Source of the DNA: a virus
Direction: 5' to 3' (one strand)
Length of the DNA stretch: 64,000 nt
IMG/VR virus record: IMGVR_UViG_3300045988_166150
Span: 1 to 64,000 of that record
Shown here piece by piece: positions 44,474 through 47,660 of the stretch (positions are counted from its first letter, which is position 1; each line of letters starts with the position of its first letter). The position numbers and the translations under genes were made by a program. Under the pieces are notes generated by a model, which saw nothing but the letters and a program-made list of their open reading frames with translations, did not search any database and had not been told where the DNA came from.

Positions 44474-44502
44474 TTGACATTTATCTAAAAATATGCTATA
44501 AT
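44474..44502 (+). promoter_or_regulatory. promoter TTGACA-17nt-TATAAT
   Basis: read directly. Confidence 0.75.
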
Positions 44503-44508
44503 AATTGT

Positions 44509-44688
44509 CAAGAGGAATATGAGTGGCGAAAAAGGTAGCCGCATAAGGAGAAAGAAAACTGTGAAATCCAGTTTGATTGGGGCAAAGAATATAAGATTAT
44601 CTGACCAATAATTCTACATTCTCCAATGTGTTCTTGCTTTGAGTTGTGGTGACTCATGTAAAGTGCAAATCTTTACCTCATATTTTTT
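44509..44688 (+). ncRNA. structured non-coding RNA of about 180 nt with its own promoter and terminator
   Basis: closing helix ATGAGT(44525)/ACTCAT(44652); hairpins GTGGC/GCCGC, AACTG/CAGTT; helices GGAGAA/TTCTCC and ATTGG/CCAAT; terminator GTAAAG/CTTTAC + T6. Confidence 0.65.
44658..44688 (+). terminator. intrinsic terminator of the ncRNA
   Basis: 6-bp stem, 7-nt loop, ATATTTTTT tail. Confidence 0.6.
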
Positions 44689-44709
44689 AAAAAATTTTTA
44701 AAAAAACTA

Positions 44710-44738
44710 TTGACATTCATAAAGAAATATGTTATAAT
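44710..44738 (+). promoter_or_regulatory. promoter TTGACA-17nt-TATAAT
   Basis: read directly. Confidence 0.75.
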
Positions 44739-44744
44739 AACTTT

Positions 44745-44997
44745 AGAAAGTTAATTAAAGCCTCTTACAGCAATCAAAATGTAGGATAAAAGATTTAAAA
44801 CATGGTTTGGAATTGTTCAAACGATTATGATAATAAGAGTGACAGAGGCTTGTCAAAAAATGCCACGCACAGCAAATTTAAAAAGTTTAATTCAACGCTA
44901 TGAATTGTATGATTTTTGTGGCTAGATTTTAAAGGACACATACAGCAAAAATAAAAAAGATTTAAAATGGGTTTAAATTAATTGTGTCCTGATATAT
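44745..44997 (+). ncRNA. non-coding leader made of three tandem stem-loop modules, each with ACAGCAA at its 5' base
   Basis: stems AAGCCTCT/AGAGGCTT, GCCAC/GTGGC, GGACACA/TGTGTCC; motifs at 44768, 44869, 44942. Confidence 0.55.
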
Positions 44998-45121
44998 TGG
45001 GTGGTAGCTCAATTGGCAGAGCAACGTAAATTTTCGTGTCTTGTATAAGACAATAGCAGCAATTTTTAAAGATAGCCTTGTAAGCCGTGTGTTGTTGGTT
45101 CGAATCCAACCCGCCCAACCA
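44998..45121 (+). tRNA. tRNA-Thr(UGU)-like gene interrupted by a 48-nt insertion (45027-45074) in the 5' strand of the anticodon stem
   Basis: acceptor TGGGTGG/CCGCCCA + ACCA, D arm GCTC/GAGC, T arm GTTGG-TTCGAAT-CCAAC; removing the insertion gives stem ACGGC/GCCGT and loop CTTGTAA; 76 nt. Confidence 0.6.
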
Positions 45122-45165
45122 ATTCAATTTATCAAAGCTGCTAGATAAAAGAAGGAGTGAATTAT

Positions 45166-46590
45166 ATGAATTTATTAGAAGGAATGTTACAAAATTCTAC
45201 TATTAAAAACTCAAAAGGTGGAGAATATTATGCCACAACTTGTAATGCAAATTTAGATTTATTTAGTGGCACAAATAGATATACAGATATAGATAAAATG
45301 AAATTACAATTTAGAAATGCTTATAATGAAAACAAAATATTAGCAGTTGCCAATCTTTTATACTTCTTAGACATAAGGGGAGGAAAAGGTGAAAGATTAA
45401 TATTTAAAACATTATTCAAAGAACTTTGCAAAATGGATAAAGAAATGGCGGTTATCGTTTTGAAACAAATTGGAAAGCTTGGTAGATATGATTATATATT
45501 AGAAGCATTTGACACGCCAGTTCAAAATGAAATGATTGAATTAATATTAACTCAACTAGGAGAAGATATAAAGTCCCAAAATCCAAGCTTATTGGCAAAA
45601 TGGTTACCTTCTGTAAAAACTCATAATAAGAAAAATCCATTAGCATGGAGAATAATTAAAGAAACAAATCTTAAAGAAAGAACTTATAGAAGATTACTTT
45701 CAAACCTAAGAAGAAAAATAAAATTAGTCGAACATAATTTAACCGAAAAAGATTATGATATTAATTTTGAACAAGTTCCAACAAAAGCTATGTTGAAATA
45801 TAGAGATGCTTTTGAAATACATTGTGAAGAAAAATATACAGAATATTTAAATAAAGTAAATGAAGGAAAAACAAAAATAAACACAGCTGGGTTATTCTGC
45901 TATGAGATTATAGAAAAAATAGCCAAAAGAAACATAAATCCAAAATTAGCAAATGCAATGTGGGAGCAACAAAAAGATATTTTAGCAGGCAATTCTGATA
46001 ATATATTAGTTATGGCTGATACTTCAGGAAGTATGACTTGCGTTAAACACGGAATTGAAACTTCAATAGGTTTAGCTTTATATATAGCCGAAAGAAATCA
46101 TGGTTTCTTCAAAGATTATTATATGACATTTTCAAGCCGACCATTGTTACAAAAAGTCACAGGTGAGAATATTGAAGATAAATATTTTAATGTTAAAAGA
46201 ATAATTGAAGATACAAACATAGATAAGGCTTTCGAGTTTTTACTTAATACAGCAAAGCAAAATAATATAAAACAAGAAGAAATGCCTAGTCATATAATTA
46301 TAATATCAGATATGGAATTTGACTATGGAGTATATTCACAACATGGCACAAATTTTAGTGGTTGGAAAACCGCATTTGAACAAGCAGGATATAAATTACC
46401 TAAAATAATATTTTGGAATATTGCGATTAAAGGATTTCCAGTTACAAAATACGATAAAGATGTTTGTATGATTAACGGATATTCAACTTCTGTTCTTGAA
46501 AACATTCTAAAATTAGAAGATTTTACACCAGAAGGGGCAATGTTAAAATCATTAAATAAATATATAAAGATTATTGAAGAAGAAAAATAA
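45166..46590 (+). CDS. DUF2828-type helical + vWA (MIDAS) protein with Ro60-like architecture
   Basis: N-terminal LDLF...LDIRGGKGERL pattern I associate with DUF2828; MIDAS VMADTSGSM (DxSxS); ATG 45166 after GAAGGAG. Confidence 0.7.
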   Translation: MNLLEGMLQNSTIKNSKGGEYYATTCNANLDLFSGTNRYTDIDKMKLQFRNAYNENKILAVANLLYFLDIRGGKGERLIFKTLFKELCKMDKEMAVIVLKQIGKLGRYDYILEAFDTPVQNEMIELILTQLGEDIKSQNPSLLAKWLPSVKTHNKKNPLAWRIIKETNLKERTYRRLLSNLRRKIKLVEHNLTEKDYDINFEQVPTKAMLKYRDAFEIHCEEKYTEYLNKVNEGKTKINTAGLFCYEIIEKIAKRNINPKLANAMWEQQKDILAGNSDNILVMADTSGSMTCVKHGIETSIGLALYIAERNHGFFKDYYMTFSSRPLLQKVTGENIEDKYFNVKRIIEDTNIDKAFEFLLNTAKQNNIKQEEMPSHIIIISDMEFDYGVYSQHGTNFSGWKTAFEQAGYKLPKIIFWNIAIKGFPVTKYDKDVCMINGYSTSVLENILKLEDFTPEGAMLKSLNKYIKIIEEEK

Positions 46591-46591
46591 T

Positions 46592-47100
46592 AAAGTTGGA
46601 GGATAGAAAATGGCGGCTATCACACCATATATCATAAAATGTTCCATTACCGGATTTTCGGTACAGCACCTTAAATCAACGAAGTATGGTCAATATATGG
46701 TCTTATAAGAGATGCGTGAGTACCGACACGCCCAACCCTTTATTTGCAGATAGAGGCACAAACTCTTCGGAGTGTGGGGAGATGAAAACCTCCCATTTAT
46801 ATGCTCAATAAAATAATGGTAAATATAAAAGTAATTAGATTTAAGAAACCTATTTTTCTTAAGATTTCTATAAAAACGGTTTCACAAGTTGTATTTATAA
46901 TAAATTTTATTACTTTATATAAGAAAGTTCAAATCTTTCATTGGGCACCATCCCCTTAAAGCTGGTATAGAAGCCGGGAAAGGATATTGTTTGTTTGTTG
47001 GTTAATCAAGTAATATCTGAGAAAAAATCAACCTATAATATGCGAGTTCTTTTCTTTCTTTTCTCTCGTGAATAAATTAAAAGAATATAGACTGTTATAT
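46592..47100 (+). ncRNA. structured non-coding region of about 500 nt next to the tRNAs
   Basis: no ORF; hairpins TACCG/CGGTA, GCGTG/CACGC, C(UUCG)G-capped CTCTTCGGAG, GGGAG/CTCCC, 9-bp TTTAAGAAA/TTTCTTAAG. Confidence 0.45.
46923..46950 (+). other. orphan tRNA 3' half (T arm + 3' acceptor strand + ACCA)
   Basis: GAAAG-TTCAAAT-CTTTC ATTGGGC ACCA with no canonical D or acceptor 5' partner adjacent. Confidence 0.55.
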
Positions 47101-47177
47101 GGCTCGTTAGTTCAGTTGGTTAGAATGCTTGACTGTCTATCAGGAGGTCGTCGGTTCGAGTCCGACACGAGTCGCCA
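47101..47177 (+). tRNA. tRNA-Asp(GUC)
   Basis: full cloverleaf folded by hand; anticodon 47135-47137; encoded CCA; position 37 is U. Confidence 0.85.
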
Positions 47178-47308
47178 AGAGTTGCATACTTAAATTACAT
47201 GAAGGGGAAATTTAAGGTTTAGAAATTAGTGAAAAACTAAAGGCTTATAAAAAGATTATGCCACCAGTTAATTTATCTACGGGGCGTGGAATTTTACCTT
47301 ATTAATAT

Positions 47309-47384
47309 GGCTTGATAGCTCAGGTAGTAGAGCAGGGGACTGAAAATCCCCGTGTCAGTGGTGCAAGTCCATTTCAAGCCACCA
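47309..47384 (+). tRNA. tRNA-Phe(GAA)
   Basis: full cloverleaf; loop CTGAAAA; encoded CCA; T-loop TGCAAGT instead of TTCRANY. Confidence 0.85.
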
Positions 47385-47484
47385 AAAAGCTATTATATAA
47401 TATATTAAGCAAGTAGTAGTGATAGTCTACTTAAAATCTATCATTCGTATGACATACCTCCTTTCAGAATTTCCAAAGAAATTC

Positions 47485-47636
47485 GGGTGCTTATGCTTCC
47501 CATAAGATAAACTTGTAGAAAGATATATTATATTTTAGCTTTATACATATGCCTAGTTGGGTGAGTGGTTAAAACCGTAAGGCTGTAAACCTTATCTCTT
47601 CGGAGTTCCCTGGTTCAAATCCAGGAGCGCCCACCA
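47485..47636 (+). tRNA. class II tRNA-Tyr(GUA) interrupted by a 66-nt insertion (about 47493-47558) between the acceptor stem and the D arm
   Basis: 3' acceptor AGCGCCC pairs only with GGGTGCT at 47485-47491; D arm GGT-GAGTGGTTAAA-ACC; loop CTGTAAA; variable arm CTC-TTCG-GAG; T arm CCTGG-TTCAAAT-CCAGG; ACCA. Confidence 0.6.
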
Positions 47637-47660
47637 AATAATAAAAAGGAGGGAAATTAT

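Follow-up and report, generated by a model that had tools for sequence, protein, structure and literature searches.

A phage protein of predicted Ro60-like fold and a conserved ACAGCAA RNA module encoded beside it

Background

Do the non-coding RNAs encoded beside a Ro60-like gene of a gut phage belong with its product, as Y RNAs belong with Ro60? The question is raised by a 3.2-kb island (positions 44474 to 47640) of the IMG/VR virus record IMGVR_UViG_3300045988_166150, of which the first 64,000 nucleotides (nt), hereafter the window, were analyzed. The gene in question encodes a 474-amino-acid (aa) protein of the DUF2828 family and is preceded by a promoter-driven leader in which a small RNA module is repeated three times before a tRNA-like gene. 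Ro60 genes of bacteria and phages have tRNA-like Y RNAs within a few kb on the same strand (Chen et al. 2014, PMC4201824; PMC12135203), and the Thermus phage phiLo carries Ro60-Yrl (PMC12135203).

A first-pass annotation of this DNA had described the leader, a protein with the two-part plan of Ro60/Rsr, a separate promoter-driven RNA, hairpin-rich RNA and several tRNA genes or fragments, and had suggested, with an RNA ligase and a MazF RNase encoded elsewhere, a phage ribonucleoprotein or a module for RNA quality control or repair. Here we examine that description by structure prediction, covariance modeling and comparison with other loci, which are designated by numbers prefixed with L. The result is a conserved pairing between a protein family of predicted Ro60 fold and an uncatalogued RNA module with frequent fusions to tRNA-like domains, a linkage that points to an undescribed and widespread viral RNA-protein particle.

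RNA modules in the leader of the DUF2828 gene

The leader begins at promoter 2 (44710-44738, plus strand), a 12/12 match to the consensus (TTGACA-17-TATAAT) with a TG extended -10 element, a counterpart of which lies upstream of the modules in L001 and L004-L008. Behind it the heptamer ACAGCAA occurs at 44767, 44869 and 44942, each time one base 3' of the 5' strand of a 6-8-bp stem whose 3' strand follows 40-80 nt further on; the whole window holds 17 copies of the heptamer against 7.5 expected. The common build is a covarying terminal stem, then a single-stranded (C)UUACAGCAA, then a variable region. Module 1 (44755-44855) has the stem AAGCCUCU/AGAGGCUU, U-ACAGCAA and a 70-nt variable region, module 2 (44857-44928) has the stem GCCACG/UGUGGC, and module 3 (44930-44994) has the stem AGGACACA/UGUGUCCU with the flanks AAAG...CUGA; all lie on the plus strand. 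When the covariance model R1, whose construction from 45 modules is described in the next section, was run over the entire window with filters off, it returned exactly three significant matches, namely the three leader modules (34.5 bits, E 4.8e-5; 30.5 bits, E 3.5e-4; and 45 bits, E 2.4e-7, respectively), and the next-best match scored 13.8 bits. A fourth copy, carrying a variant of the motif, interrupts the anticodon stem of the tRNA-like gene that follows; the three-module leader running into a tRNA-like gene is found where the first-pass annotation had placed it.

Six relatives of the window phage (61-86% protein identity) have two or three modules in the same place and layout. Their stems differ in sequence and stay complementary (GGACGCU/AGCGUCC, GUCUCG/CGAGAC, GCCGC/GCGGC, GAACGC/GCGUUC), and the orthologues of module 1 in L007 and L008 show compensatory stem changes; for the leader modules, covariation in relatives, which had been named as a test of the intergenic RNAs, is present. 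In L099 and L100 module 2 encloses a tRNA-like insert that was lost from the window, which belongs to the same lineage. The scan of the island against Rfam 15 that had been proposed gave no family at threshold on the modules, even at E<=10, and neither Rfam 15 nor the searchable literature yielded a description of the ACAGCAA module or of an RNA ligand of DUF2828, an earlier mention being possible. A candidate fifth module, based on an ACAGCA within the 68-nt insertion of the skipping-rope RNA downstream of the gene, was dropped because it is not kept in L001, L005, L006 or L008.

Association of the modules with DUF2828 genes across phages

RNAs of this kind, many with tRNA-like parts, adjoin DUF2828 genes far beyond the window phage, which bears out and extends the linkage first proposed for this island. 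In nine of nine distant GenBank phages, ACAGCAA modules occupy the non-coding gap beside the DUF2828 gene: one in Fnu1, three each in EFDG1, LMTA-57 and Thrax1, two in CPX, one in KVP40 (27 nt upstream), and, all of them downstream, three each in 6ec and HY02 and two to three in LeBron. The hosts of module-bearing phages comprise Listeria, Enterococcus, Bacillus, Staphylococcus, Campylobacter, Vibrio, Mycobacterium, Fusobacterium and enterobacteria.

A larger sample consisted of 80 IMG/VR loci chosen by protein profile, mostly with 33-41% identity to the window protein. On the strand of the gene, successive 250-nt bins upstream of it held 89, 44, 46, 26 and 16 copies of ACAGCAA, and the opposite strand held none in these bins; 71 of the 80 loci had a copy within 600 nt. 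An unbiased count of upstream 7-mers placed ACAGCAA first (62 loci, 179 occurrences against 10.8 expected), within the extended consensus G-n-G-A-Y-n-C-U-U-ACAGCAA-U. A first test of the stem against shuffled 5' strands (84% versus 63% with at least 6 bp) was too permissive in AT-rich sequence and was therefore replaced by alignment covariation and a covariance model. Without any structural input, MAFFT brought both ends of 45 modules, drawn from different loci, into register, and in this alignment all seven pairs of the closing helix change on both sides, with a covariation score of 0.82 as against 0.23 in shuffles and at most 0.15 with slid partners.

The covariance model R1, built from this alignment and applied with a cut-off of E<=0.01 over 686 kb of other loci, gave 142 matches, all on the strand of the gene and none inside it: 116 upstream (median distance 261 nt) and 26 downstream. 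A match was present in 65 of 89 loci, and several of the loci without one carry the tRNA-embedded form instead. R1 had no match in the 49-kb canonical Ro60 locus of phage Bxz1.

This distribution bears on two readings other than a particle. The position of modules in the 5' leader of the gene itself is equally compatible with cis regulation: they could be leader elements of DUF2828 (an autoregulatory operator, an mRNA stabilizer or a processing signal) and no separate partner RNAs at all. In the window and at most loci they stand between promoter and start codon on the same strand, their matches peak in the 250 nt just upstream of the gene, and no terminator separates them from the open reading frame (ORF). 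We nevertheless regard this main rival as unlikely, given that 26 of the 142 R1 matches are downstream of the gene and that LeBron, 6ec and HY02 have downstream modules only, that relatives carry extra modules kilobases away inside tRNA arrays (L006 11814, L008 12228), and that some modules have no DUF2828 gene nearby. Fusion to complete tRNA-like domains with an encoded CCA also fits released, stable RNAs better, and autoregulation would itself need the protein to bind the motif.

The motif might, alternatively, be a general feature of tRNA arrays (a spacer, a processing element or a decayed tRNA) that is linked to DUF2828 through residence in the same arrays. DUF2828 genes are indeed often embedded in tRNA arrays, modules often hold tRNA-derived pieces, true-looking modules exist without a nearby DUF2828 gene, and the window itself has decayed tRNA and tmRNA (transfer-messenger RNA) material in this region. 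Yet modules flank the gene where the stretch examined has no tRNA gene (Fnu1, LeBron), the KVP40 module lies immediately before its gene, and module density falls steeply with distance from the gene start and does not track arrays. An invariant 7-mer with a covarying stem, found from phages of Actinobacteria to those of Campylobacter, is also unlike a decay product, and we consider an array origin improbable.

The DUF2828 protein and its predicted fold

The protein (474 aa, 45166-46590, plus strand) matches two Pfam families, DUF7788 (2.5e-35) and DUF2828 (7.1e-21), and no others, and belongs to PHROG 850, labeled "RNA-binding protein". The residues of its MIDAS (metal ion-dependent adhesion site; D285, S287, S289 and D382, in the pattern DxSxS...D) are invariant among 60 homologues. 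An AlphaFold2 model built from 53 homologues was confident (predicted local distance difference test 89.8, predicted template modeling score 0.89). Foldseek searches of the PDB with this model ranked Ro60/TROVE structures as the best four matches, all over full length (about 500 columns; template modeling (TM) score 0.44-0.57, probability 1.0, E 1e-8 to 4e-6). Xenopus Ro60 (1yvr) came first (E 1e-8, TM 0.57/0.53, about 536 columns), followed by the Ro60 structures 9kop and 9l5y of Thermus phage phiLo, and the matches below Ro60/TROVE covered the von Willebrand factor A (vWA) domain only. The predicted model thus matches both parts of the Ro60 fold, a ring of alpha-helical repeats, presumably closed, and a vWA domain with a MIDAS, and the two-part plan that had been read from the sequence stands at the level of predicted structure.

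DUF2828 is a large family: a word-indexed search found 5,777 matches, the clusters at 50% identity number 5,239, and tblastn located it in 710 of 50,697 GenBank phage records, including Felixounaviruses (FelixO1-like), KVP40, Listeria P100/A511-like phages, phages of Enterococcus, Staphylococcus, Campylobacter and Bacillus, and L-cluster mycobacteriophages. The records name it variously as hypothetical, vWA protein, RNA-binding protein or "Ro-like RNA binding protein". Giant viruses share the fold (Pithovirus, TM 0.88; CroV, Mimiviridae, Marseillevirus), and DUF2828 has been noted in mimivirus-like sequences (bioRxiv 033464). Overexpression of its mycobacteriophage member LeBron gp53 is toxic to M. 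smegmatis (PMC13148394).

Directly 3' of the DUF2828 gene, four relatives have a conserved ORF of 276-277 aa without a Pfam match (L004 7435-8265, L005 7445-8278, L006 7448-8281, L008 7457-8287); the window, L001 and L007 lack it and have the skipping-rope RNA or tRNAs in that position.

A tRNA-like gene with an inserted module

Between module 3 and the protein gene lies a tRNA-like gene (44998-45121, plus strand). Its acceptor stem has 7 bp, its D and T arms are standard, and ACCA is encoded. An insertion of about 49 nt (45027-45075) breaks the 5' strand of its anticodon stem. The inserted sequence holds a hairpin (45037-45052) and AU-AGCAGCAA (the motif variant, AGCAGCAA, at 45055-45062); an A/U-rich linker and GC-CUUGUAA-GCCGU come next, ahead of the T arm, and in the latter the CUUGUAA loop follows the second part of the split strand; ACG at 45024-45026 completes a 5-bp anticodon stem. 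The same split is seen repeatedly with varying stems (ACG|GC/GCCGU, CU|CGC/GCGAG, CG|CCU/AGGCG), and in L004-L008, L018, L043 and L066 the insertion takes the place of the whole anticodon loop. Acceptor, T and split anticodon stems covary among seven close sequences, and six relatives give Rfam tRNA matches of 120-130 nt at this position.

This RNA is not a standard tRNA, its anticodon stem being interrupted and its loop not conserved; ARAGORN made no tRNA call at 44998-45121, and the Rfam tRNA model matched in part only (17.6 bits). Among near-identical relatives the loop is CUUGUAA, CUGGUAA or an 8-nt loop, and the hairpin and motif are invariant, which argues against a decoding role. The interrupted tRNAs of the first-pass annotation are accordingly real, but they are of two unrelated kinds, this tRNA with an inserted RNA module and, further downstream, a recombinant pseudogene.

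An interrupted tRNA might also be an intron-containing gene, in which excision of the insert and rejoining of the halves, for instance through the phage RNA ligase, would restore a functional tRNA. The gene does retain its cloverleaf parts and CCA, and a ligase gene lies 4.2 kb downstream. We consider this very improbable: the insert interrupts the 5' strand of the anticodon stem or stands in for the entire loop, neither of which is, to our knowledge, a place where introns are found; the inserted sequence also exists as free-standing modules with no tRNA; the anticodon loop varies in near-identical relatives (UGU, GGU, an 8-nt loop); and no splicing endonuclease is evident, with the ligase being unlinked in L001.

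tRNA mimicry by the variable region

Rfam tRNA matches of 110-130 nt flank the DUF2828 gene in many loci, and these are tRNAs with a "hairpin + ACAGCAA" insertion. A second arrangement is found in the modules of EFDG1, LeBron and L041, whose variable region consists of a T arm, a closed acceptor-like hairpin and a D arm, the layout of YrlA. The Rfam YrlA model (RF02553) matched these modules at 34-50 bits against a threshold of 69, over the tRNA-like core only, and the mismatches fall in the model's Ro-binding stems; in the window YrlA had no match even at E<=10.

Among 194 modules, 59 have a hairpin with a canonical YU-NNN-R-N loop, as against 5.7 in shuffles; 11 of these 59 are T-loops and the rest are anticodon-arm-like. 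The commonest anticodon-like loop (11/59) is CUGUUAA, an Asn GUU look-alike; examples are L006 5771-5835, L045 2814-2875 and L060 2799.

Such loops invite the reading that the RNAs are decoys or sponges for ribonucleases (anticodon nucleases, MazF-type toxins), which the protein protects or presents. Phage tRNA arrays counter tRNA-cleaving defenses, and ACA or UACA is the cleavage site of some MazF enzymes. Many modules have canonical 7-nt anticodon-like loops (GUU, GCU, UGG, UUU and others), an anticodon hairpin persists in the tRNA chimeras, with a Thr, Asn or Lys anticodon, UUACAGCAA contains ACA/UACA, and the phage encodes a MazF-like protein (4017-4403) and an Rnl5-type RNA ligase. Against this, the window's three modules have no clear anticodon-like hairpin, the anticodon loop of its chimera varies between close relatives, and MazF is encoded at a distance of 40 kb. 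We give this reading little credence as a separate explanation; it could also describe a role within a particle.

The proposed particle

Taken together, the predicted fold, the covarying anatomy of the RNAs and the strand-specific linkage of gene and RNA suggest a Ro60/Y-RNA-like particle, to which we assign a probability of roughly 0.6: the 474-aa protein would be a very divergent, virus-borne relative of Ro60 in fold, and the upstream RNAs its Y-RNA-like partners. In such a particle, promoter 2 would give one transcript with three stem-plus-(C)UUACAGCAA modules, the tRNA-like RNA with the fourth module, and the protein mRNA, and RNase P/Z-type processing at the tRNA-like element could free the RNAs from the mRNA. 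Ro60 binds a conserved Y RNA helix and threads single strands through its hole; by analogy, we infer that the 474-aa protein may recognize the invariant single-stranded ACAGCAA beside a helix. The variable part of the module can be plain or take the form of an anticodon-arm-like hairpin, of a permuted tRNA-like domain or of a whole tRNA, and might serve as effector or decoy, recruiting or distracting tRNA-acting enzymes in the tRNA-array setting of the phage.

Besides the fit of leader modules to a cis-acting role, several results weigh against a particle of this kind. The protein has no match to Pfam TROVE (PF05731) or to the Ro60-type vWA domain (PF25045), both of which are matched by the control, the canonical phage Ro60 Bxz1 gp220 (TROVE and vWA_Ro60). 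Single-sequence and 60-sequence profile searches of the PDB gave a weak vWA match and no Ro60, and hhalign of the DUF2828 profile to Bxz1 Ro60 aligned the MIDAS region only (probability 57%). These sequence routes having failed, the link to Ro60 rests on fold prediction, and "Ro60 orthologue" is too strong a term, because TROVE is not matched and profiles align the vWA part alone; the protein is Ro60-like in predicted fold and is not a demonstrable TROVE member by sequence. The TM-score to Ro60 (0.53-0.57) is moderate and comes from a predicted model, and the "RNA-binding protein" label of DUF2828 is a database annotation, not an experimental test. On the RNA side, the 97.5% pairing of the 7-bp closing helix in the 45-module alignment is inflated, because rows were picked for having the stem, and the split-stem cloverleaf of the tRNA-like gene (-25.5 kcal/mol) lies 5 kcal/mol above the minimum free energy fold (-30.8 kcal/mol), so that the cloverleaf rests on comparison, not on energy. 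Finally, a reverse scan of IMG/VR for the stem variant TTAGGCACNNACAGCAAT gave 26 matches: a DUF2828 gene was on the same strand within the stretch examined in 8, about 5 were in coding sequence and chance-like, and about 13, including seven related contigs, looked genuine, with a closing strand, and had no DUF2828 gene within about 3-6 kb. Nearly every DUF2828 gene adjoins modules; not every module adjoins the gene.

Among large phages, DUF2828/PHROG 850 ranks with the commoner proteins whose function is unproven, and a conserved RNA element beside it is a concrete candidate ligand, which turns an annotation label into a specific hypothesis of a Ro60-like particle. The three topologies (plain, permuted tRNA-like core, whole tRNA with inserted module) suggest tRNA mimicry by Ro-type partner RNAs as a general principle. 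The module also has a use in annotation, since it explains the 110-130-nt "tRNAs" and ORF-free gaps beside the DUF2828 gene.

Setting and other elements of the island

The window comes from a genome of about 114 kb, and the phage is known from human gut metagenomes; scaffold_70 of ERZ28663504 (113,845 bp) encodes a protein identical to the 474-aa protein. The contigs of the relatives (61-86% protein identity) measure 104-120 kb and share one gene order, from anaerobic ribonucleotide reductase through the island to a tRNA array. In several of them (L001 1506-2336; L004-L007, upstream regions) nrdD/nrdG is broken by LAGLIDADG, HNH or GIY-YIG homing endonuclease genes; the window's nrdD (41331-43529) is intact.

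Promoter 1 (44474-44502, plus strand; TTGACA-17-TATAAT with a TG extended -10) also matches the consensus at 12/12 and is found in L099/L100 and L001. Promoters 1 and 2, both noted in the first-pass annotation, are the sole such matches within 44000-48100. Promoter 2 drives the module leader with the tRNA-like gene and probably the protein gene as well. Behind promoter 1, where a self-contained RNA of about 180 nt had been proposed, we find a clade-specific accessory cassette (44509-44692, plus strand), putatively an RNA of about 185 nt that ends in a weak hairpin and a U-run. Its fold shows no convincing gain over shuffles (z-score -1.75), it has no Rfam match and no exact 22-mer match in IMG/VR, and among relatives it is restricted to those with a protein identity of 97% or more; L001 has about 60 nt in its place, the slot being nearly empty. 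A possible ORF of 18 codons lies inside it. A part for this cassette in the system is doubtful, and the promoter-1 RNA was excluded as a member. L001 has, upstream of its promoter 1, a second compact skipping-rope copy (5343-5421, 79 nt, 53.3 bits); at that position, just 5' of the 185-nt cassette, the window has nothing.

The roughly 500 nt of hairpin-rich RNA reported downstream of the protein gene are present and turn out to be mostly a known motif, skipping-rope, plus decayed tRNA and tmRNA material. The skipping-rope RNA (RF02924; 46592-46739, plus strand) starts 2 nt 3' of the stop codon, covers model positions 1-80 of 80 at 45.9 bits (gathering threshold 36.7) and has a 68-nt insertion in its variable hairpin. 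It is followed by a terminator-like hairpin (46777-46802, with the hairpin proper at 46777-46794; plus strand) that is kept in L001. Copies near the DUF2828 gene occur in L001 (two), L005-L008 and L018, and none was found in the 28 more distant DUF2828 loci scanned; among DUF2828 loci the motif is thus confined to the window's close clade, and it was rejected as a general partner of DUF2828. A degenerate pattern scan of bacterial genomes for skipping-rope gave 8 matches, which were chance-like.

Four tRNA genes or fragments follow, as had been described. A tRNA 3' fragment (about 46923-46953) lies in a stretch kept with L001, and its T stem covaries (GAAAG/CUUUC versus GCAAG/CUUGC). The genes for tRNA-Asp(GUC) (47101-47177) and tRNA-Phe(GAA) (47309-47384), both on the plus strand and called by ARAGORN and Rfam, are intact; they are the remnant of a 16-tRNA array seen in L007 and L008, and are context, not part of the particle. 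The last "tRNA" (about 47551-47637; partial Rfam tRNA match 47557-47626) is a chimeric class II tRNA, with a 5' part as in the L001 gene, a 3' part from another and a broken acceptor stem, its 5' strand GCCUAGU no longer pairing with the 3' strand AGCGCCC. A possible partner, GGGCGU, is at 47284-47289, upstream of tRNA-Phe. Between the Phe gene and the chimera, 47385-47556 is a remnant of a tmRNA body, homologous to the tmRNA genes of L008 (Rfam tmRNA, 54.9 bits) and L007; the tRNA-like ends of the remnant are gone, with tRNA-Phe in their place on the 5' side and the chimera on the 3' side. Reading the last tRNA with an upstream GGGGCGU as a split tmRNA or tRNA was ruled out by comparison with L001, L007 and L008.

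Both enzymes that had been invoked for RNA repair are encoded, and nothing ties either to the island. The RNA ligase (49342-50457) has the Pfam domains PHA02142 OB-fold and RNA_ligase and is of the Rnl5 (DraRnl/NgrRnl) type; its best PDB sequence match is the Naegleria gruberi RNA ligase 5cot (E 6e-33), which we take to represent the DRB0094 clade. Unrelated ORFs separate it from the island, and in L001 it is not within 6 kb. The MazF/EndoA-like endoribonuclease ORF (4017-4403, PHROG 1936; 38% identical to a presumed B. subtilis EndoA sequence) lies 40 kb off. A role of the island in RNA repair or quality control, or in tRNA surveillance, can only be inferred. Next to the ligase gene, the dUTPase gene (48880-49333) has lost 2 nt near 48975-48985, one C and one T from a T-run, and is split as a result; contig L104, identical in other respects, encodes an intact dUTPase ORF of 168 aa, and the window's version is a pseudogene or an assembly error.

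Two further observations concern other loci. The seven related contigs of the reverse scan (IMG/VR; L116, L119, L123, L125, L136, L137 and L138) share a module of about 105 nt, TTAGGCAC..ACAGCAAUUUUCUU...GAGUGCCU, in a long ORF-free stretch with no DUF2828 gene within the 3-6 kb examined. In Listeria phage LMTA-57 (L011), the DUF2828 gene is preceded, at about 1 kb, by a sub-threshold ROOL match (1925-2476; 88.5 bits versus 99.1, E 2e-16), and an RtcB "tRNA-splicing ligase" is encoded 1.3 kb downstream.

Comparison with known systems

By family, the window protein is a clear member of DUF2828/PHROG 850, the group to which the SEA-PHAGES name "Ro-like RNA binding protein" (LeBron gp53) is applied, these names being annotation labels. 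It resembles Ro60 in its predicted helical ring with vWA/MIDAS domain, and DUF2828 genes resemble Ro60 genes in having RNA genes, here those of putative partners, on the same strand, in this case within a few hundred nt. DUF2828 differs from Ro60 in lacking Pfam TROVE and vWA_Ro60 matches, its helical half being without sequence homology. The modules share with YrlA a terminal stem and a tRNA-like domain, and those of some relatives match its model below threshold. Unlike in Y RNAs, the conserved element of the phage RNAs is a single-stranded ACAGCAA beside the stem and not a bulged Ro-binding helix; the motif is absent around the canonical Ro60 gene of Bxz1, and the window's tRNA-like RNA has the reverse topology of YrlA, with free acceptor ends and the module in its anticodon stem.

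The skipping-rope motif includes the RNA at 46592-46739, which is distinct from the ACAGCAA modules. In Weinberg et al. 2017 (PMC5737381), terminators are reported 3' of skipping-rope RNAs, as with the hairpin that follows here, and a "compelling association" with a nearby protein, in either orientation, is described.

Apart from tRNA, the sole Rfam family that recurred on the modules was the Dictyostelium Class I RNA family (RF01414). Its matches lie exactly on modules in four scans (the window, L011, L014 and L079) and reach 22-24 bits, far below the family threshold of 41.5; the window match covers 44934-44991, in module 3, at 21.9 bits. By score, then, the phage modules are not members. 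In architecture they agree with the published description, according to which Class I RNAs are about 60 nt long, start with AAG, end with CUGU and have a 6-bp covarying terminal stem, an unpaired 11-nt motif beside its 5' strand and a variable remainder (Kjellin et al. 2021, PMC7919456). The Rfam consensus of the unpaired motif is CCUUACAGCAA, and the phage consensus, (A)AG-stem-YU-ACAGCAA-U...stem-CU(U/A)GU at a median of about 70 nt, has the stem, an unpaired CCUUACAGCAA-type motif, the variable rest and the ends. Class I RNAs have been reported as unique to dictyostelids (PMC7919456); four proteins interact with them in all, of which one, the RNA recognition motif protein Rnp1A, has been shown to bind them directly. 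We tentatively suggest that the phage stem-plus-CUUACAGCAA RNAs and the Class I RNAs might form one RNA class, the cognate ligands of DUF2828 (TROVE-like, vWA) proteins; their working end would then be the variable region, which frequently mimics a tRNA. This would make a second, mostly viral Ro60/Y-RNA branch that extends across phages, giant viruses of protists and some eukaryotes, a possibility that we hold with considerable reserve. For the Dictyostelium Class I RNAs, whose function has been open for 20 years, such a kinship would offer a lead.

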